Source: Anaerolineae bacterium
GTDB lineage: Bacteria > Chloroflexota > Anaerolineae > Aggregatilineales > J027
Reading direction: 5' to 3'
DNA length: 64,000 nt
NCBI GenBank assembly: GCA_008933735.1
Contig: WBUL01000001.1
Span: forward strand, 90,057-154,056
Position 1 is the first letter of the stretch; each line of letters begins with the position of its first letter. The position numbers were made by a program, and so were the translations under genes. Of the stretch, positions 11,684 to 54,898 are shown piece by piece. Below the pieces are notes generated by a model, which did no database searches, was not told the origin of the DNA, and saw only the letters and a program-made list of their open reading frames with translations.

Positions 11684-11684
11684 C

Positions 11685-11945: not shown

Positions 11946-11954
11946 CTTCGCTCT

Positions 11955-11985
11955 AGCCGCGAGATAGCAAACCTCGCGGCTTTTT
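11955..11985 (+). terminator. Rho-independent terminator after the small-protein pair
   Basis: A 9-bp stem (agccgcgag / ctcgcggct) with a 9-nt loop is followed by TTTTT. The U-run overlaps the stop codon of the convergent ABC1 kinase gene. Confidence 0.6.
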
Positions 11986-14861: not shown

Positions 14862-14989
14862 TCTCTTACCTTCTGTGATTCTATACGAGAGGGAACAAAA
14901 TAAGTTCTAACGGTTGTGTTAGAGATACATTAGCAATTTCACAGTGCGTCCAGCTTGTGTGAAGGCGAATTCGCCTTCAGATTGAGTTG

Positions 14990-37581: not shown

Positions 37582-37601
37582 AGCGGAAAGTTTAACGCGC
37601 T

Positions 37602-38429
37602 TTGGAAAGTACCTCAAACACCACCTATGCCATTCCTTACTCCCGTCTGACAGTATGGTTGGTTTTGCTCTTTGCGTTCGGGATTATCGGGTTGTGGCTG
37701 GCCTTTACCCCTGGCGGAGTTCTGGGAAAAGCTGACGCTGTGGGTTATGCCATTTGCCATCGCATTGAAGTACGCTCATTTGTTGCCAATGGACGACCGC
37801 TCCCACTCTGTGCCCGGTGCACAGGGATTTACCTCGGTGTCATGACCGGACTGGGGGTCTTTGCAGCCAGTGGACGCCTCAGAGCCGCACGTCTTTATAG
37901 CTGGCAGGTCGGGGCTGTTTTGTTTTTATTTGTGGCCGTGATGGGCATCGACGGTTTGAACAGTTATTTTCATCTGTTCCCCGGTTTTACAGGATTATAC
38001 GAGCCGCGCAACTGGCTGCGCCTGACCACCGGCGTATTTTGCGGGCTGACTCTCATCAGCGTCGTGTTCCCTATTTTTAACCAGAGTATGTGGCGCAATG
38101 GCGGCGACAGGGTCTCCCCGATTGGGAATCTGAAAGAACTGGCGGGGTTGTCCATCCTGGCGGGGCTGGTGGTTTTGCTCACCCTGACGCAGAATGCCAC
38201 GATCTTACTGGCGCTGGGTCTCATCAGCGCTCTTGGCACAGTGATCGTGCTGACGATGATGATGACCGTTGCCTTTGTGACTGCGACCAACCGCTACCGC
38301 AGTTATACTGCCTACCCGGAAATGGCGCTGGCACTGCTCGCAGGGCTGGCAATGGCGATTACCATGATTGGGCTGATTGACTTTGCCCGCTTTCAGGTTA
38401 CAGGAACGTGGGGAGGTTTCGTTTTCTAA
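37602..38429 (+). CDS. DUF2085-family membrane protein
   Basis: The family pattern is CHRIEVRSF...GRPLPLCARCTGIYLG, with multiple TM segments. The start is uncertain (TTG). Confidence 0.6.
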   Translation: MESTSNTTYAIPYSRLTVWLVLLFAFGIIGLWLAFTPGGVLGKADAVGYAICHRIEVRSFVANGRPLPLCARCTGIYLGVMTGLGVFAASGRLRAARLYSWQVGAVLFLFVAVMGIDGLNSYFHLFPGFTGLYEPRNWLRLTTGVFCGLTLISVVFPIFNQSMWRNGGDRVSPIGNLKELAGLSILAGLVVLLTLTQNATILLALGLISALGTVIVLTMMMTVAFVTATNRYRSYTAYPEMALALLAGLAMAITMIGLIDFARFQVTGTWGGFVF

Positions 38430-38524
38430 ACGACATGAGCAGTACCTTTTAGCACCCTTTTTTTAGGATTCCTGACTTTGCAAAATCGCTTAAACTAATA
38501 AGAAAGTCAGGAAAAGGTGTTGTC

Positions 38525-39109
38525 ATGGAATCCTTCCTCACAGGACTTGGTCTATCCGGCAGTGCAGGGTTAAATGCCTATCTACCGCTGCTTATCATTG
38601 GTTTGATGGTGCGGCTTGATCTGATGGAGGTCCAGGAACCATACGACACACTCGCTTCGTGGCCTGTACTGCTTGTGCTGATTCTGCTGCTGCTTATCGA
38701 GATGACTGCTGACAAAATCCCCGCAGTAGACAGTTTAAATGATGGCATCAACACTCTGATTCGCCCCACCGCCGGCGCAGTTCTGATGGCGGCCAGCACC
38801 AGCAGTGTCGAGTCGACTGACCCAACCGCCATTACAATTTTCAGTTTATTAAGCGGCAGTATTTTTGCAGGCAGCACCCATGCCGTCAAAGCAGCGGCAC
38901 GCCCTGCTGTAACAGTCACAACTGGCGGAACAGGGAACTTTATTGTGAGTTTCATTGAGGATGTGATCAGCTTTTTCGTGTCGCTTTTTGCTATCCTGCT
39001 GCCGTTCATTGTCATTTTCTTTGCGATGAGTATGGTCACGATTGTCAGTTGGTGGGTCTGGGACAGAAAACGTACGCGGCGGTATTTTCAGCCTAATAAT
39101 CCATATTGA
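38525..39109 (+). CDS. DUF4126-family membrane protein
   Basis: It begins GLGLSGSAGLNAYLPLLIIGL and contains EMTADKIPAVDS, both typical of DUF4126. Confidence 0.55.
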   Translation: MESFLTGLGLSGSAGLNAYLPLLIIGLMVRLDLMEVQEPYDTLASWPVLLVLILLLLIEMTADKIPAVDSLNDGINTLIRPTAGAVLMAASTSSVESTDPTAITIFSLLSGSIFAGSTHAVKAAARPAVTVTTGGTGNFIVSFIEDVISFFVSLFAILLPFIVIFFAMSMVTIVSWWVWDRKRTRRYFQPNNPY

Positions 39110-39115
39110 GAACTT

Positions 39116-39502
39116 ATGATTGATAAAATTGCATGGATATATATCCAGAATCGAAAAATTTTAAGCACCCGCTCCAAAGGGAAAGACACTTTTTACCTAC
39201 CTGGGGGAAAGCGTGAAACTGGCGAATCCGATGTCCAGACCCTGACTCGGGAGATTCAAGAAGAACTCTCGGTTGACCTACTCCCTGAGAGTCTTGAGTA
39301 TCTGGGAACATTTGAAGCCCAGGCCCATGGTCGGAAGGATAAGGTACGAATGACCTGTTACACAGGTGACTATACAGGTGAGTTGATTCCGGATTCGGAA
39401 GTAGAGGAAATCATCTGGTTTAACTATGCTGACCGAGGACGCAGCTCACCCGTCGATCAACTGATTTTTGATTGGTTGAAAGCCCGTGACCTCATTGATT
39501 AG
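39116..39502 (+). CDS. NUDIX hydrolase
   Basis: The Nudix box is GGKRETGESDVQTLTREIQEELSV (GX5EX7REUXEEXGU pattern). Confidence 0.8.
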   Translation: MIDKIAWIYIQNRKILSTRSKGKDTFYLPGGKRETGESDVQTLTREIQEELSVDLLPESLEYLGTFEAQAHGRKDKVRMTCYTGDYTGELIPDSEVEEIIWFNYADRGRSSPVDQLIFDWLKARDLID

Positions 39503-39972
39503 CGCTGAATTGCCGAAAACCACCCTTCTGCACGTTCAATCAGATTTTTGAGCTCCTGCAAGCCTTGTAAGGCGTTCTGACGGGTTCCGTCGTCAATGTC
39601 CAGGACCGCGAACTCATCCTCATCCAGCACCAGATACCGCCCGTCTGGATAGACAAATACATCCAGCGCTAAATCTTCGGCATAAATCGCATCGTTCTCA
39701 AGACGCGCAGGACGGGTGATATTACAGTACCATCCTTTCAAATGGTCATCATCCACGTCATGCATCTGGAAAACATTGTACCAGCGGTCACTATAAAACC
39801 ATTCAACCATCCGGTCGCCTTTACGAAAGGTGTGATAACTGGTCACGTAATTATTGCGGCTGAAAAAGGCCTCAAGCTGGATGTGCGTTTCTTCCCGGAG
39901 GAGCACCCTGCCGGAATAATGCCAGACATACTCCCCTTTTTCATTGAACTTATAAACAGTAATATTCTGCAT
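39499..39972 (-). CDS. DUF402 domain protein (nucleoside tri/diphosphatase-like)
   Basis: It contains WYCNITRPA...DLALDVFVYPDG, typical of DUF402. It overlaps the NUDIX stop by 4 nt in convergent orientation. Confidence 0.6.
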   Translation of the reverse strand: MQNITVYKFNEKGEYVWHYSGRVLLREETHIQLEAFFSRNNYVTSYHTFRKGDRMVEWFYSDRWYNVFQMHDVDDDHLKGWYCNITRPARLENDAIYAEDLALDVFVYPDGRYLVLDEDEFAVLDIDDGTRQNALQGLQELKNLIERAEGWFSAIQR

Positions 39973-39975
39973 GTC

Positions 39976-40620
39976 CTACGCACGCCCGATTGTATGGACT
40001 ACCATGAGCAGACCAGAGGCAACCGTAATACGCGGGGATTCATGCTCAATCACATTGCTGATGCCGCGTGCCGGGCCAAACTGTAGGGTTTCATTATTCA
40101 GAGGATATTTCAAACCAGATGTGACGACCCCTGAAACCGCACCGCCCATCGGAATTAACGAAATGGTATCGCCCGGTCTGCCCATGATAACATGGTCACC
40201 TGCGGAAATCAGCCACATCGTTTGTTTACCGGAAACCAGCCGTGCATCCCGGCCAACAAGCTGCGGCAGTCCCAACAGATAAATATTGGCGAGCGTCTGG
40301 TCCAGTCTATCACCCAGCGCTCCGATCACCCGAATCGCTGATAGATCACGCCGTGCGGCTTCTAAAAGCGCCAGTTCCAAATCCGTTTCATTTTTTTCTG
40401 GTGGGAATTTTTGAATTTCAACGTATGAGTTTGCGAGTTTTTCCAGAGTGGGCGAACTGATTGAGTCCATGTCGCCAATAACCAGCGCCACCTTCATGCC
40501 AGCCCGTAGGGCATGTTCCGCGCCGCCATCTGCTGCGATGACAAAGTCAGCAGCATCCAGCGCTTCGCGTACCGCCGGGCCATCAGCAAACTCTCCATTG
40601 GCAAAAATAACGGTCACCAT
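39976..40620 (-). CDS. thiN: Thiamine pyrophosphokinase
   Basis: The pattern is VIAADGGAEHAL...VIGDMDSI...PPEKNETDLELAL...GALGDRLDQTLANIYLL, followed by a C-terminal thiamine-binding beta domain. Confidence 0.78.
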   Translation of the reverse strand: MVTVIFANGEFADGPAVREALDAADFVIAADGGAEHALRAGMKVALVIGDMDSISSPTLEKLANSYVEIQKFPPEKNETDLELALLEAARRDLSAIRVIGALGDRLDQTLANIYLLGLPQLVGRDARLVSGKQTMWLISAGDHVIMGRPGDTISLIPMGGAVSGVVTSGLKYPLNNETLQFGPARGISNVIEHESPRITVASGLLMVVHTIGRA

Positions 40621-40623
40621 GAA

Positions 40624-41577
40624 CTAGCGTTTGCGCCGCCGCCATTCTTCCTTCAAGACCAGGTTCGCAACATCTGGTTCTTCCAGAAATTCCTTGAGCA
40701 GACGGACAAATTGAGTGTTTTCTTCCAGCATGGGGTAATGCTGGGAGTTTTGCATGACGAGTAACTTCAAATTAGGCCGGTTATCCACCAGAGCCTGCAA
40801 CACATCATCGCTGGGCTGCGCTACCAGGCGATCTCCGCCACCAATGATGACCACCGCCGGGACAGAAACCTCCATGATATCACGAAAGGTTTTCACATCC
40901 ACTGAACCACGTGCACCCTGTTCTACCGCTTTATAATCCGCTTTTGAGACTTCTTTTTTGAGCTTGTCGTAATCCGGGCTGGTTTCAGAAATAGCATGAT
41001 GCACAATATCTTCAGCATATTTGACCGAAGCCAGCAGTTTACGAATATAAACCGCCGGATGGTCAGTATCGACCTGACGCACTTCCTCCAGCACCGCTTT
41101 CGCAGTAACGACCGGGATAATGGGCAAGGTTTCGGGAGCTGCTTCTACGCCATCCGTGACCTCAACAATTTTGTTCGTAGTCAGCGCAGTACTTTTGGGA
41201 TTCAGATCAAACAACGGTGGGCTTACCACCATCATCCGGTGAACCTTTTCCCGGTGCTGAGGAAGATTGGCGAACCGGGCCGCAATCACCGCCCCCAGAC
41301 CATGCCCAATCAGCACCGTTTTACGAATACCCATTCGATCCATGAATTGGTCAAGCAGGTTGGTCTGTTGGTCAATCGTGTAACGTTCGGGGTTTCTTCC
41401 GGAATCCCCGAATCCCCACAGGTCGATTGCATAGCAGCGATACTTAACAGCAAGCTGCTGCATGGTCGGTACCCAATAGCGCCACGAACCTAACCAGCTA
41501 TGCAGCAGAATAATCGGTTTTCCTCGGCCCAACACCTCGTAGTGAATCAGGTCGTCTTCAACAGTTATCGCGCTCAT
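40624..41577 (-). CDS. Alpha/beta-hydrolase-fold protein with the nucleophile Ser replaced by Gly (GHGLG) and an enlarged lid
   Basis: It has HYEVLGRGKPIILLHSWLGSWRYW...DLWGFGDSG, then GHGLG where GxSxG is expected. The His is retained (SQHYPM). It is a paralog of 53426..54265. Its ATG shares one base with the CheY stop codon (TAATG). Confidence 0.8.
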   Translation of the reverse strand: MSAITVEDDLIHYEVLGRGKPIILLHSWLGSWRYWVPTMQQLAVKYRCYAIDLWGFGDSGRNPERYTIDQQTNLLDQFMDRMGIRKTVLIGHGLGAVIAARFANLPQHREKVHRMMVVSPPLFDLNPKSTALTTNKIVEVTDGVEAAPETLPIIPVVTAKAVLEEVRQVDTDHPAVYIRKLLASVKYAEDIVHHAISETSPDYDKLKKEVSKADYKAVEQGARGSVDVKTFRDIMEVSVPAVVIIGGGDRLVAQPSDDVLQALVDNRPNLKLLVMQNSQHYPMLEENTQFVRLLKEFLEEPDVANLVLKEEWRRRKR

Positions 41578-41948
41578 TAAGCGAATTGATCCAAAATGTC
41601 TTTAACCTGGCGAGTCAAATCCTCAGGGGCAAAGGGTTTTACGATATAGCTGTAAGCCCCTGCATCCATTCCCTGGTCAATTTCTGTATCCTGCCCGTTC
41701 GCGGAAAGAAACACAACCGGAATATCCTTCACCACCTCTATTGCCTTCAGCTCTCGGCAGGCCTCATAGCCGTTCATTTTGGGCATACGTACATCCATCA
41801 GGATCAGGTCAGGTTTGTTTTTCTGAGCCATATCAATCGCCTCGATCCCGTTTCTTGCTGTAATCACTTCATGGCCCGCATAGGTGAGTGTGAAGTCAAT
41901 TAAATCTCGAATATCCTGCTCATCTTCCGCTATGAGTATTCTTGCCAT
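41577..41948 (-). CDS. Single-domain response regulator (CheY-like receiver)
   Basis: It reads MARILIAEDEQDIRDLI...DLILMDVRMPKMNGYE...KPF. I chose the ATG at 41948, which has GAGGAG upstream, over the TTG at 41957. Confidence 0.9.
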   Translation of the reverse strand: MARILIAEDEQDIRDLIDFTLTYAGHEVITARNGIEAIDMAQKNKPDLILMDVRMPKMNGYEACRELKAIEVVKDIPVVFLSANGQDTEIDQGMDAGAYSYIVKPFAPEDLTRQVKDILDQFA

Positions 41949-41966
41949 CCCACACAACTCCTCGCG

Positions 41967-44900
41967 CTAACTACTTTTCGCAGTTGGCATTTTAACATAG
42001 AAGGTTGTCCCCTTCCCTACCTCACTCTCAAACCAGATACTGCCTTTATGCATTTCAACCAGCGATTTAACAATGGATAATCCCAGACCAGTGCCAGGGG
42101 TATCCAGCACGAGAGATTCATACTCATCCCCCCGGAAGAAGCGGTCAAAAACACGATCTTGAATTTCTTTTGGAATACCCACCCCGGTATCAGACACACT
42201 CATCACAACCGCGTCTCCTTCCTGGCGGGCAACCAGCGTAATCACCCCGTCAGCAGGCGTATAATTGAAAGCGTTATCTGCCAGATTCTGCATCACCTGA
42301 AGGGTTTTGTCGTAGTCAGCCCAGATTTTCGGCAGTGCGGCATCCATGTTCACATTGATCTGCATAGGTTTGTTACTATCCTGCGTGCGCCCCTCCAGAT
42401 GGCTTCGAGTGCGTTCCAGCAGATCGGGAACTTCGACTTCTGTGAATCGTAAGGGCACACGATTCTGGTCAATCTTGGAAACTTCGAGCAGGTCATTCAC
42501 AAGAATACTCAGACGATCAGCATTTTGTTTGATGGTTTCCAGGAAACGCTGCTGCGCTTCTGAAATTTCGCCTGCTGCCCCAAGCAGCAGCAGGTCCGCA
42601 TAACCTTTGATAGAAGTCATAGGAGTCCGCAGTTCGTGAGACACCGTAGACACAAATTCTGTCTTCAGACGATCAACTTCCATCAACTGGGTGATGTCAC
42701 GAATGACGGATACTGTGCCCAGAAATTGATCGCCCATGTTCACCGGAGAAAGACGAACGTTAATTGTACGTCCATCCCCCAATTCAATGGCAAGTTCTAC
42801 GAAATCCCCTTCCATATAGGAGGCGGGGTCACTTGTCCAACGGTTGATCGCCGCCAACCAGTCGCCACCGCTTCCACCATATAAACCCGCCAGTTCACGA
42901 ATGGGGCGATTGACCACACGTTCAGCCGGAAGCTGCAAAATACGTTCTGCTGCCGTATTGAACAGCACAATCGTGCCCGATTCGTTGGCATACATGACCC
43001 CATCTGCCACCGAGTTGATAATGGCCGTGTTTTTAGTCGATTCAATCTGTTCCGTCCGCAAAATGGCGCCCAAGCGTTCCGCCTGGTCCCGGATGAGGCT
43101 GTAGAGTTCGGAGTTGTTCATTGCATTCGCAAGCTGGCTCGCCGCCGCGGCTACCAGTTTCAGATGATCTGCATTAAACGCGCCGACTTTTTCGCTGAAG
43201 AGCATCATAACGCCGCGTACATCATCACCGCCCTGCAAAAGCGACGCCACCGCCGCACGGTGCCGCCGATCACGGTCACTGACCACTAACCAGCGCGGGT
43301 CGTTCTGAACATCCTCGATCACCACATTGGTCTGATTCTCCAACACCCAGCCGGCCAGCCCTTCGTCCTGTGCCAATTGCGTCCGCATATCGTCTGGCAC
43401 TGGTTCTTCTTCGCCATAGGCATGAAGCACATACAACCGTTCCGAAATCTCATCAATGCCCAGGATTACCGCGGTTGTCGCGCCAATGGCACGCGCCACT
43501 TTTTCCAATGCAACAGAGAGAATCCGCTGAATATCCAGCGAGGCAGCTACTTCGGATGTGATGTCATACAGCGTAGAGACACGCTCGCGTTCCTGATCAA
43601 GTTCAGAAGTGCGTTCGTTAACACGAATTTCCAGGCCCTGTGCAAGTTCTGCGGTCTGCTCAAACAGCCGTGCATTCTGGATAGCCACACCTAATTGAGC
43701 CGCTACTGTCGTCAGAATACGCTGATCGTTCAGACCAAACGCGCGGGGGTTCTCATTATCCTGAACTGCGAGCACCCCGACCACTTCCTCACCAGAAACC
43801 ATCGGCACCCCGAGGAAACACTTTGTGTCCGGCATGAAGGGATCACTGATGCCAAAGCTGCGTCGCGCCTCAACCATCTGTGACCCAGCCAGCAGCAGAG
43901 GGCCTTTGCGCCGAATGACATACGAAAATTCATCATTCCCCATTGGCAGCGGTGGCAGGGTAAGATCACCTCCCTCGCTCTGCACGGCAATCGGGAAACT
44001 GATTGTGCTCTTTTCTCTGTCAAACAGCGCCACATACAAAACATCCGCATCCAGAAGCACCGGTAGCTGGTCACGTACAATCGGGAATAATTCATCCACA
44101 TCAACCGTACTGGATACCGCTGTTGACAGGTCGTTGATAATATACAACTCCTCGATATGAGAGCGGGTTTCAGTCTGCAACCGAGCATTCTCAATGGCGA
44201 CAGCCGCGTTACTGGCAAGTGTTCGCGCCAGGCGCACGTCAGCCGTTTCAAAATAACGGTTCTGCTCACGGATTTCGAGTTCAATCAACCCGATGGACAG
44301 ATCATTCACCACCAGTGGCACCAGCAAGCGGCTGGTCGCGCCCCGCCTCTCCATCAGGCTAATTTCTCTGGGATCCACATCTTTTTGTCCCAGACGCATG
44401 GCGACCACCTGGCGCTGACGCAGCACCCGCTCACGCACCGGAAACTCACTCAATTCATAAATCGTACCGGGCAAATCCGCATAATCAGTATCTCCCCAGG
44501 CATTGATGGCTGCGTGAATTTCCAGCTTGTTTTCAATATCATCCCACAGCGCAATCGAACAGGCATCCGCCCGCAGCGCTGAGAGCATCTGACTGACTAC
44601 ACGCCGCATCGCTTCATTCAAATCAAGGGTTATTGCAGTCGCCTGAGCGGCCTCAAACAGGGTTTCCAATTCGTGGGTACGAACAACAGATTGTTCAAAC
44701 AGGCTCGCATTCTGCACCGCAATAGCGGCCTGACTTGCCAGCGTCTGGGCAATTTCGAGGCGTTCTTCAGAGAAGTCGTAGTAGTCTTCCATCACTTCAA
44801 ACTGCATCGCCCCAATGACCGTTCCGCCTACAACCAGCGGCACAATCAACGCGCTGCGAACCTTTTCAGGACTCCGCATGAAGGGTCTCAGATCGTCCGC

Positions 44901-47900
44901 AAGCGGCGAATTCTGGAAATCTTCAATGATGAATGGCAGCAGTGTTTCGCGGATACGTGCGACCACGCGGTTATCGGGCAGTGGATATACCTTGTTCGGC
45001 GCTTGATGCCCACGCGGATATTCCACCACAATACGCCCAAGGTCATTCTCGTGGTCAATCTTGATGGCGGCGGCCTCCTGGATTTCCAGTGCTTTGGCTG
45101 TTTCGCGCAGGGTAATTTCCAGAATATTTTCTATATCCAATGACTGTGCCAGCGAAACCGCGACACGGTTCAGCAGTTCCAAACGCTGTGCCTGATTTCT
45201 GAGTTCGCTGGCGCGTTGATTGGTCTGCTCGAACAACTGGGCATTATTCAGAGATACAGCGGCCTGGTTTGCAAACGTGAGCAGCAGTTGTTCGTGATGG
45301 GCCGAATAGAAATGCGGCTGTTCTTTCTCAACCGCAATCACCCCAACAATCGCATTCTGATAAATCAGCGGCGCACCCAACCAGTTTTTATACGGCAGGG
45401 CCTCTCCATAGGGGAAACGCGGGTCATTCGCACCAATATTCCCGACATTTACCACCTGCCGATTTTCGGACATTTCACGAAACAGCGTACTGCTGTCAAT
45501 GTCCACATACAACCCGACCAACTCTTCCGCCGAAGCCACATCCGGGTGTTTGTAGCCTTGAGCTGCTGCCACCCGCAAACGTGTTCCTTCACGCAGCCAC
45601 AATGACACACCATCATACGGGATCACACGGTCAAGGGCTTGTAAGATCACCGAAATAACCGAATCCGTATCTAGGTTTGAGGTAATCTGGCTGGAAACCT
45701 GAGACAGAGCACGAAGTTGTTCGGCGCGTTGTTCCAGATCGGATTGCAGTTTCGCCCGTTCGGACACGTCTTCGATCAACAGCACCACGCCCGTAACCGC
45801 ATCCCCCTGCCGAAGGGGGTACGTGTAAAAATTACCCGTAACTGTTTCCTTCAGTTTACTGTCAAAAAGAATGTCAAATTGATGGTAAGGCACGCCCTTC
45901 GCCAGGGCGCTGTCAATTGAATGGCGCAAGAAATCAGCAAATTCCGTCTCATAATCATACAGAATTTGACCTACCGCTGTCTCCTGCCAGCCATAACGCT
46001 GCTGCATGAAGGCATTCACCGAAGTGATGCGGTGATTGGTATCCAGCACGATAATACCCTGCTGGATGGACTGTACCACCGCTTCACTGTAGGCTTTTTC
46101 CGCCCGGAGGTCATCCAGCAGGCGCGAATGTTCGATGGCGACAGCAGACAGGTTCGCCATACGGCGGACAAGATCAATATTTTCTGAGAAACCGAAGGCG
46201 TTTTCCAGCTCGCTGCCCAGACGCAGCACTCCCAGGGTGCGCCCGCCTGTAATCATGGGTACCATGAGCGTAATACGTTCACCCTGTTCATACCAGCGCC
46301 GCAGGTCAGGGTAAGTCAGCGCCTGAGTATCGCCGCGCAGGTGATACAACAATGCACGGTTCTCGCGGTAGCTCAACGAGACAGAAGTACTGCGTGCAGG
46401 CAGCGGTTTGTCATCAAAAAGATGCACCTGTCCATCCGCAGTCAGTTCAACACGCTGGAGATGAAATTCTGACCCGTCCTCCGTCGGCAAGGCAACATGC
46501 ATACGAGTAAAAGCGATCATCTGTTGTAAGCCATCCGCCAGCGTGCGAATGACGGTTTCCATGTCCAGGGACGATGCTACCGCTTCCATCATAACGGAGA
46601 GGCGCTGCTCATTTTCACGCTGGTGAACCGTTTCCAGATACAGGCGGGTATTTTCCATGGCTGCTGCTGCCTGCACCGCAAACAGCTCGATCACCTGCAA
46701 ATCGGTTTCGGTGGGACGTGTGTTATTCACCGGCATTTCCAACCCGATGATCCCAATCACCCGGCTCTGTCCCTGGCCGTAAAGCGGCAGATATAAAATA
46801 TCCTGGGGATGCCATTCATCTGGCGCAACCTGTTCTGGAACGGGCTTTTCGCCGCGCAGCACATACTGCTGTACCCAGGGCTGGTCATAACGCAGATAGT
46901 AAGCAGCACCCAGCCTGAGAGACTGAAATTCCGGGTCGGCCAGGCGTTCACGCCAGACTTCCCCTGGCAGCACGGCCGCCCGCATTTTGGGCAGTTCATC
47001 ATCTTTATAGCCGACATGGATCAGCAGCGTGTTTTCCAGGTTTTCATCACGCATCGTAATGCGGACTTTTTGCCAGCCGCTCGCCTGAATCCCACGTGCG
47101 ACGGCGTCCAGGCGAGAAGGAATATCCGAGAAAAGTTGAATTTCCTGCGCGACTTTGTGAAGCTGTGCTAGACGATCACGTTCTGCCTGTGTACCAGCCG
47201 CTTCTGCCTGAATGTTTTCCAGCAGGAAATAGTTTTCCACGCTGAAAGCCGCTTCCGCCGCAAAAAATTCAAGCGTTTCAACGGTCGCTGCTGTGGGTCG
47301 CCGCCCATTGGCAGGATCATCAACACTGAACCAACCCAGCAGTTTTTCATCCGACCCGTAGAAGGGGATAAGGAACAAGTCTTCTGGGTTCCAAGCATGG
47401 GAACCTTCTTCCTGGGGGACGGTAATATGCTGGCTTATTTCATCGCTCAGCCCATCGAACATCCACTCAGCCTGATATTCGGCGGGCAGGAAATAGGCAC
47501 TGCCCATTTTCCAGCGGTCGTGCAGCAGTTTTTGGATCCTATCCAGTGTAGGTGTAATCTGCTGAGCTTCCTTGAAGGCGTCTGAGGTCAGGCCATACTG
47601 CGCTACACGGCGGAAAACCTGGGTTTTTTTGTCCCAGACATTCATCAGCACCACACGAAAACCAACCGTTTGCGACAGGGTCCGTGCCAGGTCTCCCAGC
47701 ACTTTCTCAAGCGTTGCACCTTCGCGGATGGTTTCACCCAGCGTATAGACTTTGCTCAACTGATCGGCCCGCCCGCGCAGCATTTCGTTCATACGAAGCT
47801 GCTCACGGTAACGGCGAGCATTCGCAACCGCCAGAGAGGACTGTTTGGTCACCCGTGCCACAAATTCCTGGAGTGAACTGCTGAAGGCATTCGGAGTTTT

Positions 47901-50786
47901 GCTGGCTACATGCACCAGCCCGGTATATTCGCCCTCAATGACAATGGGCTCAACCAGCGCCGAGCGTGCAGATTCCGGAACGGCACTCAGGTCAGACCCC
48001 AGGTAGTCACTGATAAAAACCGCTCGTTTGTCTTTCCAGGATTGTTCTTCGATCGGCACAAAGGTTTTTGCTGGGAAAACATCGCCGGCTCCGACCCGTT
48101 TTTCTACAAGCGGACGCTTTTCGTCATACCACTCGTTTGGAGGTGCAAGCAGCAGAACTGTAACATCATCCGCCGCCGTTCCCTGCAAAACCTCACTACG
48201 AACGATCTCTAAAATACGATCAAGGTCAAGGCTTTCCGACAGATTAATGCTGATCCGATCAAGAGCATTGAGCTCATCGACCCGATTCCGCAAATCTTTG
48301 TCCGTTGCCTGGTAAAGGCGCGTTCGTTCAACAGCAGAGGCAATCTGCGCGGCAACCGCGTTCAGCAGGGCCACATCATTGTCTGTGAAGATGCCGTCAT
48401 GTTTATTCCCGACCGACAATTCTCCTATGACCCGATTCTGGAACACCACTGGAATGGTGACCGTATTGGTCAAATGCAGTTCATCAATGACCACTCGGTA
48501 GGCTGAAAGCACCCGCTTATCCCGATTAACGTTGTCGGAACGGAAGGGACGACGTGAAAGCACTACACTATCGGAAAAGCCGGGGCTAAAAATATCCAGA
48601 CGGAAGTCCTGGCTAAGCTTTCTACCGTAAACATTTTCCGGCTTATAAACAAGATCACCTTTTTCGCTATCCAGAAGTCCCAGCGCAGCCATCTCACAAT
48701 TCAGTAAGGCGGTTGTTTCCCCAAGTACCTGTTGGATAATGTCTTCAAGCCGGACTGCGCCAGAGACAATTTCAGCGATTTTCCGCAGCCCATCGGCCTC
48801 AACAGCGCGACGGCGCGTTTCGGAATACAGACTGGCATTGTTAACAAGAACAGCCGCCTGCCCCGCAAAAAGATTCATTAACCGGGCTTCTTCTTCATCA
48901 AAATCATGCCCATCCGAGTCATTGGCAACAACCACCAGCCCAAGACGGTCACGCCCAACCTGAAGTGCCGCCACTGCCATCTTTTTCACTTCCAGTTCGG
49001 CGGCAAGGTGGCCCAGCTCAGACCGCATGATCTGCGGATCATTGAATAAATTATTGTGATACCAGTAGACTTTATTTTGCCAAAGTTCAGCGACCAGCCC
49101 ATCTACCGCCAGGGTATATTCGCTGCCATCATGGCCGTAGAAACCGGGTCGGGAAACCAGCACGTTGGCATTCGGCTCATAGAGGAAAAGACCACATTTT
49201 TGTGCCTGGATCAGGGTTGCAATGCGAGCCGTAATCTGGCGATACAATTCAGCAGGTTCATGCAGCAGTTCAACCGCCTGGGCTACCTGTTGCAAACCTT
49301 CCAATTCCTCTGCCCGGCGCTGCTCTTCTGAGTACAAACGCGCATTTTCAACAACGATCGCAACTTGAGCGGCAAAAGCAGCTAACAACTGCATATCATC
49401 ATCACTAAATCCACGTCCACTGCGGGGATTAGCGACCAGCACCGCCCCGACACGTTGATTACCCACCAACATGGGTACCACAGCAACCGAGTGCATCCGG
49501 CCTGTATTCACCAGGGTACTGATACCCAATTGCTCAACGGTTAAGTCCTGGTAAGCATCGTTGGTATACCACCAGTCACTTTCTTGCCAGAGCTTATAAC
49601 CGGGTGAACCGGGGGTGACATCCAGTTTACAGTATGGTGCCATCGGATCAACAATTCCGTACAGGGGACGCTGCCCAACCAGCTCATCGCTGTCCTCATT
49701 CACCAGCATCACCCCACACATTTCAACGCCAATCATTCCGGCAATGCTGCTGTTCAGGTGCTGGAACAACTTCGATGGTTCGGTGAGCACCGTCATCGCC
49801 TGGGCGATCTGCTGCAAGCCGCTGAGTTCTGCCACCCTGGAGGTTTGTTCACGGTACAGGCGCGAATTTTCAATGGCAACTGCCACCTGTCCGGCAAGGG
49901 TCTGCAAAAGAGTCAGGTCTTCAAAATCAAATGCATAGGCTATCCGACTGGCAAGCTCAAGCGTGCCTAAAAAACGATCCCCTACCAGCAGAGGCACCCC
50001 GACGTAACTACGGAAAGTATAGTCGGTGACCTTTGGGCGCGTTTCCTGGCGTGTCTCAGAGTCGCTGATGATAATCGGCTGGCGGTAGCGGGCAATCCAG
50101 CCCGAATACCCTTCGTCAATCCGATATGTCCCACCAGCCTTTTCCAGAGCGGCGCTGTAACCGGGATCACCCAGACGAGCGATCGGGCGCAAGAAGAACT
50201 GATCTGCGTGCCAGTAATTGATTTCGCAGTTATCATAGGGAATCAGTGTGCCAACACGATGCAGAATCGAACTCAAAGTATCTTCAAGTTCACGGGATTC
50301 AGCCAGAATGACACTGATTTCCCCGATCACGCTGACTGCTTCCACTGGGTCATACTTCTGAACCGGGGTCCCGTTCTGAGATTTCTCTTTCATAACTACA
50401 ATCATCCGGCGGCCAGTGTCCGTCGGAATAACATGCGAAGTCGCCTCAACCTGGAGTTTGCCCACGCGAAAACTGGCCAGCCCTTCCGCCGCAAAAATAT
50501 CCCGGAAGGTGTCCGATGGCTGAACCTTACGGGCCAGGAGGGTCAGATTGGGGGTTTCCCCATTCATGCCAAATAAGCGCCGTGCGCGGTCATTCATATA
50601 AACAAGATGTCCCCGTTCCTCGGAGACAATCACAGCACTTGTGTTATCTATCAGATTGACAGGGACAAGGGGTTTTGCCTGTGGATCAACCACAAATCGG
50701 CGCGTTGCCCTGAGTTCGCGCACCAGGAAAAAGAGGTACACGAGAACAAGCAGTCCCAACCCTAATAAGACAACTGTGAATACCAT
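41967..50786 (-). CDS. Giant sensor histidine kinase (2,939 aa): TM - PAS - 8x GAF - PAS - 5x GAF - PAS - HisKA - HATPase_c
   Basis: The N-terminal TM segment is VVLLGLGLLVLVYLFFLV. There are 13 repeats, each ending in the GAF C-terminal helix pattern (for example QVAVAIENSRLY, QVAIVVENARLY, NAAVAIENARLQ, QLGVAIQNARLF). The H-box is FVSTVSHELRTPMTSIKGY. The N and G boxes are MQNLADNAFNYT, DTGVGIP and GTGLGLSIV. Confidence 0.9.
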   Translation of the reverse strand: MVFTVVLLGLGLLVLVYLFFLVRELRATRRFVVDPQAKPLVPVNLIDNTSAVIVSEERGHLVYMNDRARRLFGMNGETPNLTLLARKVQPSDTFRDIFAAEGLASFRVGKLQVEATSHVIPTDTGRRMIVVMKEKSQNGTPVQKYDPVEAVSVIGEISVILAESRELEDTLSSILHRVGTLIPYDNCEINYWHADQFFLRPIARLGDPGYSAALEKAGGTYRIDEGYSGWIARYRQPIIISDSETRQETRPKVTDYTFRSYVGVPLLVGDRFLGTLELASRIAYAFDFEDLTLLQTLAGQVAVAIENSRLYREQTSRVAELSGLQQIAQAMTVLTEPSKLFQHLNSSIAGMIGVEMCGVMLVNEDSDELVGQRPLYGIVDPMAPYCKLDVTPGSPGYKLWQESDWWYTNDAYQDLTVEQLGISTLVNTGRMHSVAVVPMLVGNQRVGAVLVANPRSGRGFSDDDMQLLAAFAAQVAIVVENARLYSEEQRRAEELEGLQQVAQAVELLHEPAELYRQITARIATLIQAQKCGLFLYEPNANVLVSRPGFYGHDGSEYTLAVDGLVAELWQNKVYWYHNNLFNDPQIMRSELGHLAAELEVKKMAVAALQVGRDRLGLVVVANDSDGHDFDEEEARLMNLFAGQAAVLVNNASLYSETRRRAVEADGLRKIAEIVSGAVRLEDIIQQVLGETTALLNCEMAALGLLDSEKGDLVYKPENVYGRKLSQDFRLDIFSPGFSDSVVLSRRPFRSDNVNRDKRVLSAYRVVIDELHLTNTVTIPVVFQNRVIGELSVGNKHDGIFTDNDVALLNAVAAQIASAVERTRLYQATDKDLRNRVDELNALDRISINLSESLDLDRILEIVRSEVLQGTAADDVTVLLLAPPNEWYDEKRPLVEKRVGAGDVFPAKTFVPIEEQSWKDKRAVFISDYLGSDLSAVPESARSALVEPIVIEGEYTGLVHVASKTPNAFSSSLQEFVARVTKQSSLAVANARRYREQLRMNEMLRGRADQLSKVYTLGETIREGATLEKVLGDLARTLSQTVGFRVVLMNVWDKKTQVFRRVAQYGLTSDAFKEAQQITPTLDRIQKLLHDRWKMGSAYFLPAEYQAEWMFDGLSDEISQHITVPQEEGSHAWNPEDLFLIPFYGSDEKLLGWFSVDDPANGRRPTAATVETLEFFAAEAAFSVENYFLLENIQAEAAGTQAERDRLAQLHKVAQEIQLFSDIPSRLDAVARGIQASGWQKVRITMRDENLENTLLIHVGYKDDELPKMRAAVLPGEVWRERLADPEFQSLRLGAAYYLRYDQPWVQQYVLRGEKPVPEQVAPDEWHPQDILYLPLYGQGQSRVIGIIGLEMPVNNTRPTETDLQVIELFAVQAAAAMENTRLYLETVHQRENEQRLSVMMEAVASSLDMETVIRTLADGLQQMIAFTRMHVALPTEDGSEFHLQRVELTADGQVHLFDDKPLPARSTSVSLSYRENRALLYHLRGDTQALTYPDLRRWYEQGERITLMVPMITGGRTLGVLRLGSELENAFGFSENIDLVRRMANLSAVAIEHSRLLDDLRAEKAYSEAVVQSIQQGIIVLDTNHRITSVNAFMQQRYGWQETAVGQILYDYETEFADFLRHSIDSALAKGVPYHQFDILFDSKLKETVTGNFYTYPLRQGDAVTGVVLLIEDVSERAKLQSDLEQRAEQLRALSQVSSQITSNLDTDSVISVILQALDRVIPYDGVSLWLREGTRLRVAAAQGYKHPDVASAEELVGLYVDIDSSTLFREMSENRQVVNVGNIGANDPRFPYGEALPYKNWLGAPLIYQNAIVGVIAVEKEQPHFYSAHHEQLLLTFANQAAVSLNNAQLFEQTNQRASELRNQAQRLELLNRVAVSLAQSLDIENILEITLRETAKALEIQEAAAIKIDHENDLGRIVVEYPRGHQAPNKVYPLPDNRVVARIRETLLPFIIEDFQNSPLADDLRPFMRSPEKVRSALIVPLVVGGTVIGAMQFEVMEDYYDFSEERLEIAQTLASQAAIAVQNASLFEQSVVRTHELETLFEAAQATAITLDLNEAMRRVVSQMLSALRADACSIALWDDIENKLEIHAAINAWGDTDYADLPGTIYELSEFPVRERVLRQRQVVAMRLGQKDVDPREISLMERRGATSRLLVPLVVNDLSIGLIELEIREQNRYFETADVRLARTLASNAAVAIENARLQTETRSHIEELYIINDLSTAVSSTVDVDELFPIVRDQLPVLLDADVLYVALFDREKSTISFPIAVQSEGGDLTLPPLPMGNDEFSYVIRRKGPLLLAGSQMVEARRSFGISDPFMPDTKCFLGVPMVSGEEVVGVLAVQDNENPRAFGLNDQRILTTVAAQLGVAIQNARLFEQTAELAQGLEIRVNERTSELDQERERVSTLYDITSEVAASLDIQRILSVALEKVARAIGATTAVILGIDEISERLYVLHAYGEEEPVPDDMRTQLAQDEGLAGWVLENQTNVVIEDVQNDPRWLVVSDRDRRHRAAVASLLQGGDDVRGVMMLFSEKVGAFNADHLKLVAAAASQLANAMNNSELYSLIRDQAERLGAILRTEQIESTKNTAIINSVADGVMYANESGTIVLFNTAAERILQLPAERVVNRPIRELAGLYGGSGGDWLAAINRWTSDPASYMEGDFVELAIELGDGRTINVRLSPVNMGDQFLGTVSVIRDITQLMEVDRLKTEFVSTVSHELRTPMTSIKGYADLLLLGAAGEISEAQQRFLETIKQNADRLSILVNDLLEVSKIDQNRVPLRFTEVEVPDLLERTRSHLEGRTQDSNKPMQINVNMDAALPKIWADYDKTLQVMQNLADNAFNYTPADGVITLVARQEGDAVVMSVSDTGVGIPKEIQDRVFDRFFRGDEYESLVLDTPGTGLGLSIVKSLVEMHKGSIWFESEVGKGTTFYVKMPTAKSS

Positions 50787-50798
50787 TGTCTGTCATCC

Positions 50799-51707
50799 TC
50801 ACCAGGACGTTTCAATTTTGCCAACCTCACTCTTGCCGCCGCGCCGCCGGACTTCCGCCGCCAGTTCGGTAATTTCCCGAATATCCGAGTAGCGCTGGTT
50901 CACATTAGATACTGAACCTGTCGCCAGCATCATGAGAGACTTTTCTTCTCCAGCATGAATGATCTTGCTGCGTTCTCGATCAATGAAAGAATAATGCTGC
51001 TGCACTTCCTGGTTAAATTTCGCAACCAGGGCCTCTTCCATCTCTCTGGATTTAGTGGAGTAGGTGACAATGATGAAATTGTCGTTGCCGGGGTGCCCCA
51101 GAAAATCGTTGGGGGTTCCGAAACTGTCCACGATTTCGCCCATCAAAAGTGCCGTAAAACGTAAGACTTCTGTCCAGGCAACAAACCCGTAAACTTCACG
51201 GAACGGGTCGCTGTTCATAATTTTTGCGTCAATATAAGTCCAGGTCGAATTTTCGGTAATTAGCTGGCGAAGTTTATCCTCGATTAACTGGCTGGTAGGC
51301 AAATTACTGCTAGGATCGGTTGATTGGTCACGCTCTGCACGCTCAATCTGGTTCTTGACCCGCAGTTTAAGTTCTTCGATGTCAAAAGGTTTGGTGATAT
51401 AATCGTCTGCCCCCAGTTCCAATCCGGCAATTCGGTCGGAACGTTCGTCTTTCTGGGTCAGGAAGATGATTGGAATATGGCTGGTGCGGGTTGTCGTTCG
51501 CAGTTCCCGGCACACATCAAAGCCGTTCATATCCGGCAGCATAATATCCAGAACAATAAGCTGCGGGAGCTGCTTGCGCGTCATGAGCAGGGCATCTCCA
51601 CCACGCGGTGCAACCTGCACATCATACCCCTGCCCCGTAAAGTAAATCCGCAGCATATTGGAGATGTCGTAATCATCTTCGACGACCAGAATACGGCCTT
51701 TGCTCAT
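50799..51707 (-). CDS. Response regulator receiver fused to a degenerate GGDEF-like domain (GNDNF in place of GGDEF)
   Basis: The receiver reads RILVVEDDYDISNML...LIVLDIMLPDMNGFD...ADDYITKPF. The C-terminal domain follows the GGDEF layout (FREVYGFVAWTEVLRF...DFLGHPGNDNFIIV). I chose the ATG at 51707, which has GGGAGG upstream, over the GTG at 51725. Confidence 0.78.
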   Translation of the reverse strand: MSKGRILVVEDDYDISNMLRIYFTGQGYDVQVAPRGGDALLMTRKQLPQLIVLDIMLPDMNGFDVCRELRTTTRTSHIPIIFLTQKDERSDRIAGLELGADDYITKPFDIEELKLRVKNQIERAERDQSTDPSSNLPTSQLIEDKLRQLITENSTWTYIDAKIMNSDPFREVYGFVAWTEVLRFTALLMGEIVDSFGTPNDFLGHPGNDNFIIVTYSTKSREMEEALVAKFNQEVQQHYSFIDRERSKIIHAGEEKSLMMLATGSVSNVNQRYSDIREITELAAEVRRRGGKSEVGKIETSW

Positions 51708-51776
51708 GCTAGCTAACCTCCCCACTTTGGGGTTTACATACGTGAAAAACCTGAGCCAGTGCGTACACTCAATGAT

Positions 51777-51805
51777 ACATTAGGATACACTTAACACCAA
51801 ATCAA
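51777..51805 (-). promoter_or_regulatory. Candidate sigma70-type promoter for the RR-HK-CheY-hydrolase operon
   Basis: On the minus strand the sequence is TTGATT, a 17-nt spacer, then TAATGT. It lies in the AT-rich 239-nt gap upstream of the response regulator gene. This is a pattern match only. Confidence 0.3.
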
Positions 51806-51946
51806 TATTAAAACGCGACTTTAACAATTTTCAGACTAAATATTAATTACGAAAGGTGAAAGGCAGCATCATGGCGTAGTCGTAACACAGTCTGGGGGAG
51901 AATACCAGAACTCCAACCTGATCTTACCGAAACTCAAACCAGTGGA

Positions 51947-53371
51947 TTACCATTCTTCAAGCATATCTTCTTCACCCATGTACGTTCGGCGCGAATAAAG
52001 ACGGCTGTGCAAGGCAGCCACCCGGTCATCAAGGGTTAGATGGTCGCTCATATCATAGGTAATTCCCTTACCAATGACACGCCTATCAGCAGAGGCAATG
52101 AGAATCACATCTGACTCAATCGTCCGTCCAGGAAAAACAATCATCCCCGCCCCAACCCGAACATTATGCCCCACGCATCCCCCTAAAACGGCCTGCCCAA
52201 CCTCAGACATCTCGCCGTAGGCATCCATCGCTTTGATGGGCGACGGCAGCAGATTAAAATCGGTAAAGGTTGTCCCCGCCCCCACAAAACTGTTCCGTCC
52301 CAGCACGCACATTTGCAGACAGGTATTTTGTGCCACAATAGTGTAGTCCATCATCGTCGTCATGAACAACGCCGCACGGAACGGTAAAAAGCAGTTCGCG
52401 CCGACCACACTCAACATTAAATGGCAGTTGTTTGCCAAAGTCGTATTATCACCAATGACACAGTTATCAATGACGACCCCCGCGCCAATTTTGCAGTTGT
52501 CTCCGATGGTTGTCGGGCCTAAGATCACGGCTGAAGGATCAATGTCGCAGTTCTTCCCTACCTTGACCAATTCTGAGCAGGAGACAAACTGGCGCTGCTC
52601 CAGAATAGAACGCCACAGGATTTTTAGCGTCAACAGGTTGCTTTTGGCGGCGGTTTCTTCAAAACGAAACCCCCTGGAAAATACTCCCAGGGGAATATTG
52701 GCATTAAAAATGTGAACCCAACTTTGGATGGGAACGCAGCTCCGCCAACTCAGAAAGTGGGTCAAATCCTGGTCGCGCCGGATCAAACTGTCACCGCTTT
52801 CCAATTCTTGCAGTTTGAGGTTGCTCATACTGTCAGGAACATTATAGTAGCCGCGCTCTTTGGCGTCCGACGGTACACGAACCACCTGCCATTCCACAGG
52901 TTCAGCCCACCCACGCGGAAAGTAATACAAGTCTATTTTATAAAACTCACCCCGGTCGTCGCTGCCTTTGTAATCTCTCAGGTTCGTCAGGGGAATGCTG
53001 TAACGTTGCCATGCGTAGTCATCCGCAGGCAGCGCCGCCTGACAGGGCCGACCCGAAGCCTGAGCTTTTTGCAAAAAATACACAAAAAATTCACGATCAA
53101 AATACAAATTATCCCGGTAGACCACCACTTCATCGTCGGGCCTTAATCCGTACCGGGGACGTTCCAACTCGTCTTTCAGTTGAAAAATGCCACCATTTTC
53201 ATTGGTCAAGCTCACTTCCAACGATGTTTTCCCGATCACACTCTCGACCAGATCATTCAGATGAAGGCCGAGGGGAACGGGTTTGCCGTTGGGGTCTAAA
53301 ACACTGAGTTCTCTGGCGGGTTCATTGAAGGGATGAATCAGAACTTCTTCGGCAATAACAAATTTCCGCAT
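51947..53371 (-). CDS. Protein with a C-terminal left-handed beta-helix (hexapeptide repeats) and an N-terminal domain of unknown function
   Basis: The imperfect hexapeptide repeats read IDPSAVILGPTTIGDNCKIGAGVVIDNCVIGDNTTLANNCHL...VGAGTTF...VGHNVRVGAGMIVFPG. The N-terminal ~270 aa are unassigned. Confidence 0.55.
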   Translation of the reverse strand: MRKFVIAEEVLIHPFNEPARELSVLDPNGKPVPLGLHLNDLVESVIGKTSLEVSLTNENGGIFQLKDELERPRYGLRPDDEVVVYRDNLYFDREFFVYFLQKAQASGRPCQAALPADDYAWQRYSIPLTNLRDYKGSDDRGEFYKIDLYYFPRGWAEPVEWQVVRVPSDAKERGYYNVPDSMSNLKLQELESGDSLIRRDQDLTHFLSWRSCVPIQSWVHIFNANIPLGVFSRGFRFEETAAKSNLLTLKILWRSILEQRQFVSCSELVKVGKNCDIDPSAVILGPTTIGDNCKIGAGVVIDNCVIGDNTTLANNCHLMLSVVGANCFLPFRAALFMTTMMDYTIVAQNTCLQMCVLGRNSFVGAGTTFTDFNLLPSPIKAMDAYGEMSEVGQAVLGGCVGHNVRVGAGMIVFPGRTIESDVILIASADRRVIGKGITYDMSDHLTLDDRVAALHSRLYSRRTYMGEEDMLEEW

Positions 53372-53425: not shown

Positions 53426-54265
53426 TTAGCGGGCGTCAAGGAAATTCAGCAGGTCGTTGATAAAACGTTCCGGGTCGTCCGCCATAGGAAAGTGCCCAGC
53501 ATTGTCAAAGAGCGAAAGTTGGGCATTTTCAATTTTGCCGACCAATTCATGCTGGTTATAGTGCACTATAATGTCTTTTTTACCATACATCCCCAGCACG
53601 GGCTGATGAATACGATGCAGTTGGTGGGTTAAATCCGTGCGTCGCAGCGTGCCAATACTCTGGAAAAACGACTGCAAATTGACCCGCGAAAGGTCGTCCA
53701 GCATCATGCGACGCACAGCGGCGCCATCATTTGCGGAAAAATACAAATACGTTCCCACAATAGCCCGCAGAATCGGATAGAATGCAAAACCTAACCCCGC
53801 CATGACGGGATTTCCACCAATCTTCAGGCCCAGATACAGGGATTCACCATTGACCGGCGACCCGACGACACCAACCCTGACAATACGCTCCGGATACTGG
53901 AGCGCACACTTGAGCGCGACGGTTCCTCCCATACTGTGTCCCACAACAGCCGCTTTAGGGATGCCCAGTCTATCCATAAACTGCCTGACCATATCCACAT
54001 AAGCATCCACTGAGAATTCCTGAACGGCCTCTTCGTTCGTACCAGCTTTGCGACTTTCCCCAAATCCCCAGAAATCCAGCGAATAAGTTCGGTATTGTTC
54101 CCCCACCTTTTCGATGGTTGGCCGCCACAACTGCCACGACCCAAGCCACCCGTGCAAAAACAGCACAGGGCGGCCTTTCCCGTACACTTCATAATGAATA
54201 ATACTGCGGTGTGGAGGATCTGTGGTCAGTAACGGCACTGTTGCATCCCAAAAAATTGCAAGCAC
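53426..54265 (-). CDS. Alpha/beta hydrolase with an intact GHSMG nucleophile elbow
   Basis: It reads HYEVYGKGRPVLFLHGWLGSWQLW...DFWGFGESR...VVGHSMGG...DNAGHFPM. It starts at GTG. Confidence 0.85.
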   Translation of the reverse strand: MLAIFWDATVPLLTTDPPHRSIIHYEVYGKGRPVLFLHGWLGSWQLWRPTIEKVGEQYRTYSLDFWGFGESRKAGTNEEAVQEFSVDAYVDMVRQFMDRLGIPKAAVVGHSMGGTVALKCALQYPERIVRVGVVGSPVNGESLYLGLKIGGNPVMAGLGFAFYPILRAIVGTYLYFSANDGAAVRRMMLDDLSRVNLQSFFQSIGTLRRTDLTHQLHRIHQPVLGMYGKKDIIVHYNQHELVGKIENAQLSLFDNAGHFPMADDPERFINDLLNFLDAR

Positions 54266-54853: not shown

Positions 54854-54898
54854 AAGCGCTTCGCCTCTACACTCATTCGATAATAGCAAAGGATGAAA

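Follow-up and report, generated by a model that had tools for sequence, protein, structure and literature searches.

A 64,000-nucleotide (nt) stretch of genomic DNA from an Anaerolineae bacterium (NCBI GenBank assembly GCA_008933735.1, contig WBUL01000001.1, positions 90,057 to 154,056 of the forward strand; hereafter the window, whose coordinates are used throughout) contains four genes that follow one another on the minus strand and that make up a real, apparently undescribed signaling module. They encode a response regulator of 302 amino acids (aa) (50799-51707; ATG at 51707, TGA at 50801-50799), a sensor histidine kinase of 2939 aa (41967-50786; ATG at 50786, TAG at 41969-41967), a stand-alone receiver of 123 aa counted from its ATG (41577-41948; ATG at 41948, TAA stop), and a 317-aa protein of the alpha/beta-hydrolase fold (40624-41577; ATG at 41577, overlapping the receiver stop), which we refer to as the hydrolase-like protein. 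We propose, with moderate confidence, that these genes form a co-transcribed, branched two-component pathway with non-catalytic partners that is conserved in the Anaerolineae genomes examined.

Gene order across Anaerolineae genomes

The junctions within the cluster are short. Regulator and kinase genes are separated by 12 nt, with a GAGGA that begins at the second base of the regulator TGA, the kinase and receiver genes are 18 nt apart with a GAGGA inside the gap, and the TAA of the receiver and the ATG of the hydrolase-like gene have one base in common (TAATG at 41577). The tight coupling, coordinates, and strand given for these four genes in an initial annotation of this DNA are as claimed.

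Conservation of this arrangement was surveyed in 83 non-duplicate loci containing a hydrolase-like gene, 3 of them from exact look-ups and the remainder the top 80 among 592 or more places where a pattern scan of GTDB species genomes found hydrolase-like relatives. Identity of the hydrolase-like protein across these loci is 33-72%, and the genomes are mostly metagenome-assembled, a few with labels that are evidently mis-binned (Oceanobacillus, Pleurocapsa). In 81 of the 83 loci the hydrolase-like gene is preceded by a receiver gene, with a median gap of 24 nt and with 8 cases of an ATGA overlap. The initial annotation had agreed in advance to let its claim stand or fall with conservation of gene order beyond this genome, and a receiver was found no more than 100 nt upstream in 80 of the 83 loci, down to 33% identity. 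A kinase core precedes the receiver in 77 loci (median gap 19 nt), and in each of the 59 loci with a readable full regulator C-terminus, the regulator comes before the kinase. Aggregatilinea lenta has the four genes in order. A receiver without a kinase core occurs in 4 loci; the contigs of L018 and L039 break off too early, while in L068 and L084 the regulator stands directly before the receiver, no kinase was found in the fetched sequence, and the receiver and hydrolase-like genes are kept together.

The four-gene operon of the initial annotation stands as far as the tight coupling of its members is concerned, but the array does not end there. A gene for a 214-aa thiamin pyrophosphokinase (TPK; 39976-40620, minus strand) follows 3 nt past the hydrolase-like stop, and one for a 157-aa DUF402 protein (NtdP/FomD-like nucleotide phosphatase family; 39499-39972, minus strand) 3 nt past the TPK stop. 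DUF402 is the final gene of the same-strand array, and a convergent NUDIX gene overlaps its end. Through these two 3-nt junctions the tightly joined unit becomes one of six genes, and TPK is probably co-transcribed with the upstream cluster. Among the surveyed loci, a TPK gene lies within about 350 nt after the hydrolase-like gene in 40 of 83, with DUF402 next in many of those, a link that is clearly looser than the one to the receiver.

The 239 nt before the regulator gene (51708-51946, minus strand) are a candidate promoter or leader region. The TTGATT-N17-TAATGT match reported there is present, but as a promoter it agrees with the consensus at only 4/6 + 3/6 = 7/12 positions, which is chance level and below the threshold of 9/12 used in a scan over 38900-52100 compared with shuffled sequence. 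That scan did no better than the shuffles (8 promoter-like sites versus 11.8 ± 3.5), and we reject the match as promoter evidence; terminator-like sites in the same interval likewise showed no excess over shuffles. Rfam at the gathering threshold returned no family anywhere in the window, so the gap contains no known riboswitch or leader, and ARAGORN gave no match.

Signaling proteins and their degenerate accessory domains

The hydrolase-like protein is a recognizable member of its fold (Pfam Abhydrolase_1, E=2.4e-22; AlphaFold2 [AF2] predicted template-modeling score [pTM] 0.78). In a profile alignment, the nucleophile Ser of PHB depolymerase falls opposite Gly93, confirming that GHGLG replaces GxSxG, and the acid and His of that enzyme align with Asp249 and His280, both invariant in our alignment of the hydrolase-like family (A1). 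The family has 54 invariant positions, including these two residues, an N-terminal MSAI, and a C-terminal W..R..R, and a basic C-terminal tail, EEWRRRKR, is conserved. Over the 83 loci, the nucleophile position is Gly in about 59, Ser in 6, Asp in 6, and Ala in 4, with Thr in L086. Because this position varies while His280, Asp249, and the termini are kept, purifying selection acts on something other than covalent catalysis. All named members of the family come from Chloroflexota/Anaerolineae.

Structural searches place the protein only broadly. Foldseek matched the model to esterases and PHB depolymerase with E about 1e-17 at 15-21% identity, and its matches were limited to generic aryl esterases, perhydrolases, epoxide hydrolases, and PHB depolymerases, with no informative close relative; RsbQ, D14, and KAI2 were in neither the 50 best Foldseek PDB matches nor the 60 best profile matches, and GID1 is likewise missing from the Foldseek top 50. 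The lid region (residues 133-169) is predicted to be disordered, with an AF2 predicted local distance difference test (pLDDT) below 50. It is also the least conserved part of the protein, a low-complexity insertion that ranges from roughly 0 to 130 residues and is missing in one lineage.

The regulator begins with an OmpR/PhoB-like receiver whose phospho-acceptor Asp54, together with Thr84 and Lys106, is invariant in an alignment of 22 regulator sequences (A2). Pfam Response_reg matches the two receivers of the cluster with E=4e-29 and 1e-30, and they score best against the PhoB, RpaB, MtrA, and YycF models, all far under the cutoffs. Pfam finds nothing significant in regulator residues 125-302 (GGDEF E=0.025, 14.8 bits versus a cutoff of 23.8); regulator orthologs do match PF00990. 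Since the regulator itself is under the Pfam threshold, we base its GGDEF homology on profile alignment to PDB sequences and on predicted structure. The GGEEF of PleD lies opposite G-S/N-D-N-F, which in the regulator is GNDNF at 207-211; the position reads G-x-D/N-N-F in 22/22 A2 sequences and GGDDF in some more distant orthologs. PleD residues D327, N335, D344, E370, and E371 correspond to K162, R170, T179, D209, and N210 of the regulator, and I-site residues R359 and D362 correspond to D194 and G197, both invariant in A2. The roles of these residues in Mg binding, guanine binding, catalysis, and product inhibition are known from PleD structures. The AF2 model has a pLDDT of ~85 over 130-290, and Foldseek matched this C-terminal domain to WspR, PleD, and DgcB with probability 1.0 and a target TM-score (TMt) of 0.65-0.73. 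The receiver half was modeled at pLDDT <50, probably because alignment diversity was too low, and only the C-terminal domain was used. This domain is a true GGDEF fold in which, as the initial annotation had it, GNDNF replaces GGDEF. With the Mg, guanine-binding, catalytic, and I-site residues lost, the regulator should neither make cyclic di-GMP (c-di-GMP) nor bind it at the I-site. The further suggestion that the accessory domains of this system are stripped of catalytic residues is thus borne out for the GGDEF-like domain and for the nucleophile position of the hydrolase-like protein.

The regulator is also strongly constrained. Over 120 database clusters its identity is 70-94%, with a length of 302-306 aa in nearly all of them (one truncated entry has 265 aa), and 155 positions are invariant in the 22-sequence sample. 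Across the surveyed genomes it is 54-94% identical, where TPK, DUF402, and the hydrolase-like protein are at 35-60% and the genes next to it generally at 40-60%; a regulator range of this kind is the level expected of master regulators such as WalR, MtrA, and RpaB. Two relatives with 38-39% identity, P0349 and P0309, occur in other contexts, one beside a Wzz/BY-kinase gene and one as an orphan, and were set aside as paralogs that are uninformative on the cluster. With a 52% identical relative inside the array, this places the orthology boundary near 50%. P0349, a paralogous REC protein with a GGDEF-like domain, has a Wzz/GNVR-ParA-type tyrosine-kinase-like gene on one side and a GH2 glycosidase on the other (L088, 8305-13323), a possible hint of a role for this domain family in polysaccharide regulation.

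The regulator of the window ends in a conserved ...ETSW tail. A tail of the form ..[I/L]-x-T-x-W is present in 46/46 loci with the long form of the hydrolase-like protein (at least 318 aa, with the lid insertion), and the ..T.W tail is present in 0/13 loci with the short form (259-264 aa). Short-form loci also have shorter kinases, of about 2000-2700 aa, and TPK lies within ~350 nt in only 2 of the 13, so the correlation may reflect a single clade split. We treat this co-occurrence as a lead for contact between tail and lid and not as evidence of it; either co-evolution or a single clade split could produce the pattern.

The kinase has one N-terminal transmembrane (TM) helix (residues 1-23) followed by basic residues, from which the rest of the protein should be cytoplasmic. 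The region between this helix and the first GAF unit is tentatively read as PAS-like. The 13 GAF domains counted in the initial annotation were recovered by a hidden Markov model (HMM) made from nine of the kinase's own repeats, four of the 13 GAF-like units being outside the training set; Pfam reports 12 GAF_2 stretches. Eight units occupy 148-1557 and five occupy 1671-2562, with PAS domains at about 1568-1670 and 2588-2701. The C-terminal catalytic core matches HisKA (E=2.8e-19) and HATPase_c (E=5.9e-28) in Pfam, and its H, N, G1, and G2 boxes are intact: HELRTP (His2717), NLADNA (2834), DTGVGI (2866), and GTGLGL (2898). The best model matches of the PAS-HisKA-HATPase core are PnpS, WalK, PhoR, and NblS, all far under cutoffs. 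In loci without a contig-end cut, kinase open reading frames (ORFs) span 1995-3197 aa, which implies that the number of GAF units varies. Five kinase ORFs (L067, L072, L082, L083, and L085) run ~270 aa past the HATPase domain, and in L083 this extension matches a receiver, so hybrid kinases probably exist in some lineages. L087 is a metagenome copy almost identical to L086, and gene calling breaks its kinase region (9928-15539) into many short ORFs on the opposite strand; either a disrupted kinase or a fault of assembly or sequencing could explain this.

The stand-alone receiver is 36% identical to the receiver of the regulator and has its motifs intact (LILMDVRMP, FLSANG, and IVKPF, with the Asp, Thr/Ser, and Lys). 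Its score against the NCBIfam CheY_Halo model is 76 bits, well short of the cutoff of 200, and we have dropped the earlier label of CheY in favor of stand-alone receiver. In L086, a 29-aa ORF (18317-18406) lies between the kinase and receiver genes and overlaps both; it may be a gene-calling artifact or a small coupled peptide.

A proposed branched pathway and its alternatives

If these proteins act together, the membrane-anchored and otherwise cytoplasmic kinase, with its 13 GAF and at least 2 PAS domains, would integrate intracellular signals and autophosphorylate on His2717. Phosphate would then be handed to the two receivers encoded on either side of the kinase. Because a GGDEF-fold domain that is unable to make c-di-GMP leaves binding as the output, the regulator may act by phosphorylation-controlled dimerization or by docking to a partner through its dead GGDEF domain. 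On the other branch, the nucleophile-less hydrolase-fold protein would serve as a non-enzymatic adaptor or effector of the phosphorylated stand-alone receiver. We favor this receiver partnership for three reasons: the receiver/hydrolase-like junction is the most constant of the cluster (80/83 loci), it is overlapping or very short, which favors coupled translation, and the pair persists in L068 and L084 without an adjacent kinase.

Several points weigh against this model. We infer phosphotransfer and protein-protein contacts from adjacency alone, and synteny within a single class can partly reflect shared ancestry and not function. Of the genome matches, which number at least 592, the gene-order counts cover the best 80. 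TPK and DUF402 are joined as tightly as the signaling genes, so tight junctions by themselves are no proof of a common function. Two loci, L024 and L029, have a Ser-form hydrolase-like gene with no signaling genes found in the fetched flanks. The Ser, Thr, and Asp lineages might still be enzymes, and the conserved His/Asp pair could have a residual catalytic or ligand-binding role.

One alternative is the ligand-receptor role suggested in the initial annotation. The hydrolase-like protein could be a ligand-binding, non-hydrolyzing receptor or co-sensor that feeds the kinase, for example through a PAS or GAF module. Its counterparts would then be GID1, which is a hydrolase-fold receptor without catalysis, or RsbQ in its action on RsbP. 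Both the core fold and the surroundings of the former active site are strongly conserved, the latter in the oxyanion region (H-S/G-W), in Asp249 and His280, and in the geometry of the elbow; the kinase linkage is conserved as well, and broken-triad receptors of this fold exist. However, the lid, from which RsbQ, D14, and GID1 build their pocket, is variable and disordered in this family and missing from one lineage, coupling of the gene is to the stand-alone receiver and not to the kinase start, and the receiver/hydrolase-like pair outlasts the adjacent kinase in L068 and L084. The kinase, moreover, is already equipped for sensing with 13 GAF and at least 2 PAS modules. The analogy with RsbQ and D14/KAI2 drawn in the initial annotation proves weak: the fold is indeed used in signaling, but the protein here has no Ser and none of the three is in the top 50 structural matches. 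RsbQ, D14, and KAI2 have an intact Ser-His-Asp triad, which they need, and hydrolyze their ligand; the broken triad of GID1 is compatible with receptor function, making it the better analog. We regard a receptor or co-sensor role as a tentative possibility.

If, instead, the gene is a passenger that belongs with TPK and DUF402 or acts alone, its adjacency to the signaling genes would simply be inherited gene order. TPK and DUF402 are attached by 3-nt junctions no looser than those between the signaling genes, TPK is nearby in almost half of the loci (40/83), L024 and L029 hold the gene without signaling genes in the fetched flanks, and an intact paralog in the same neighborhood suggests an enzymatic ancestry. 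On the other hand, the receiver link is far more constant than the TPK link and survives rearrangements that remove TPK, and Gly or Ala at the nucleophile position of most members speaks against a metabolic hydrolase. Because the receiver link is so much the stronger of the two, we consider this explanation quite unlikely. A thiamine-salvage partnership with TPK was rejected as the main interpretation on the same grounds, the missing nucleophile and the much weaker link. Least probable is a role for the stand-alone receiver as a phosphate sink or allosteric kinase modulator, as DivK is for DivJ and PleC, with the hydrolase-like protein modulating receiver dephosphorylation or stability: the layout of kinase, receiver-effector, and stand-alone receiver does resemble DivJ/PleC-DivK-PleD, no PDB sequence matches the regulator better than PleD, and the conserved His/Asp pair could act on an acyl-phosphate, but the nucleophile position is not conserved, and a receiver phosphatase of the hydrolase fold would, to our knowledge, be without precedent.

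The wider neighborhood and comparison with known systems

The conserved neighborhood is larger than the cluster and spans about ten genes. Directly upstream of the regulator gene, and also on the minus strand, lie genes for a 474-aa protein with a left-handed beta-helix (LbH, hexapeptide) domain (51947-53371), a paralogous alpha/beta hydrolase with an intact GHSMGG (53426-54265), a small Ras/Arf/MglA-like GTPase (54311-54889), and a DUF4388/PatA_N (PATAN) protein (54899-55801), the last two marking the upstream end. A hexapeptide gene precedes the regulator in 8 loci (L040, L068, L072, L074, L079, L082, L084, and L085), and in L068, L074, and L084 the hydrolase, GTPase, and PATAN genes also stand before it, ordered as in the window; in L062 the upstream block is nearby but inverted. 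The LbH domain of the 474-aa protein covers only about residues 260-330, and its N-terminal ~260 residues have no Pfam match at E<=0.001. In L068 the gap between the hexapeptide and regulator genes is about 39 nt.

The most complete counterpart is in L086, whose regulator (P0254) is 52% identical and occupies the same array. There the genes run from PatA_N through GTPase, Roadblock/LC7, hydrolase, V4R, hexapeptide, and shikimate dehydrogenase to the regulator (GGDDF), followed by a kinase of 2101 aa, a receiver, and a hydrolase-like protein of 263 aa that bears GHTLG and a KEEWRRRTR tail. The Roadblock/LC7 (MglB-like) and V4R genes are found in L086 and not in the window. The intact hydrolase and the Ser-less protein of the window are 27% identical, visibly closer over their first ~55 aligned residues, and have the motifs HYEV.G.G.P, WLGSW, and WGFG.S in common; this paralogy suggests that the pseudo-enzyme arose by duplication within the neighborhood.

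Beyond the cluster on its other side, the window (35792-39109) and L003 (14090-17408) both contain DUF4126, DUF2085, and an SH3-domain protein. An NAD-dependent epimerase is annotated in L003, and ORF 35792-36721 would be its counterpart in the window. These common genes indicate long-range synteny between the window and the L003 lineage, in which the hydrolase-like protein has 47% identity. Downstream of the cluster, L001, L003, and L086 contain epimerase, Wzy, MurJ, or polysaccharide genes. Judging from these together with the GTPase, PATAN, and hexapeptide genes, we speculate that the output of the pathway lies in the cell envelope, motility, or (filament) polarity.

A more ambitious proposal would treat the ten-gene array as one Anaerolineae-wide module that couples a small-GTPase polarity switch to a phosphorelay with only non-catalytic binding outputs. 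Its members would be the PATAN protein, the MglA-like GTPase, the intact hydrolase, the hexapeptide protein, the REC and dead-GGDEF regulator, the multi-GAF kinase, the stand-alone receiver, and the pseudo-hydrolase, the last as a new receiver-binding adaptor or receptor whose lid insertion may read the C-terminal ..T.W tail of the regulator. Such a module would control filament polarity, gliding, or cell-envelope synthesis. We consider this grand version doubtful. An association of MglA-family GTPases with PATAN proteins has already been described, and the passages searched make no mention of a tie between this pair and the two-component system considered here (PMC4316618).

Returning to the branched pathway, none of the components falls outside known superfamilies, and one kinase paired with two receivers is an established layout. 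What appears to be new is the fixed combination of four genes and its conservation across the Anaerolineae genomes examined, as well as the master-regulator-like constraint on a regulator with a dead GGDEF output that is paired with a pseudo-hydrolase. The initial annotation had not seen the combination described, and we found no published description of the cluster in the literature searched, a limited full-text check. Anaerolineae are abundant filamentous bacteria of sludge, sediments, and hot springs whose regulation is almost wholly without experimental study, and this cluster is among their most constrained signaling systems, yet its two outputs are neither DNA-binding domains nor enzymes. 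If the hydrolase-like protein is indeed a receiver partner or a receptor, it would be a further example from bacteria of a phosphorelay with a pseudo-enzyme among its parts, and the cluster would offer a way into the function of multi-GAF kinases. Aggregatilinea lenta (GCA_003569045.1), which carries the cluster, is a candidate test organism if a culture is obtainable.

Among known systems, the Streptomyces conservon (CvnA kinase, CvnB roadblock, CvnC, and CvnD GTPase) likewise brings together a histidine kinase system and a small Ras-like GTPase (PMC4316618). The likeness extends in L086 to a Roadblock/LC7 protein. Gene content and order nevertheless differ: there is no CvnC and, in the window itself, no roadblock gene, while a PATAN protein, two hydrolase-fold proteins, and a hexapeptide protein are present.

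The WalK, PhoR, PnpS, and NblS kinases, with walHIJ, SipA, and LpqB, are similar to the cluster in their kinase core, their highly conserved regulator, and the accessory non-kinase genes of their operons. The output here, however, is GGDEF-like and not a winged helix, the sensor consists of 13 cytoplasmic GAF units, and the accessory protein has a different fold. RsbQ/RsbP, D14/KAI2, and GID1 are comparable in placing an alpha/beta-hydrolase fold in signaling, and RsbQ and RsbP also in the genetic linkage of such a protein to its signaling partner. Where RsbQ, D14, and KAI2 keep Ser-His-Asp, the protein described here has Gly93, its family G/A/S/T/D, and its lid is variable and disordered.

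For the regulator, the closest comparisons are from Caulobacter. PopA (REC-REC-GGDEF), whose I-site is retained and binds c-di-GMP, is similar to the regulator in fusing a receiver to a catalytically dead GGDEF fold that acts by binding and not synthesis. With Asp194 and Gly197 at the I-site positions, however, the ligand mode of PopA is not expected in the regulator. PleD is the best solved-structure sequence match (138 bits, both domains aligned), but PleD is REC-REC-GGDEF with an active GGEEF and an RxxD I-site, whereas the regulator has a single receiver and GNDNF without the Mg, guanine, and I-site residues, and it scores 110.8 bits against the NCBIfam PleD model NF007135 (cutoff 474), with the receiver alone matching. 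In the DivJ/PleC-DivK-PleD system of alphaproteobacterial cell-fate signaling, kinases serve a stand-alone receiver and a receiver-GGDEF protein that are encoded close together; the cluster described here differs in its giant 13-GAF kinase, in its attached pseudo-hydrolase, and in belonging to a different phylum.

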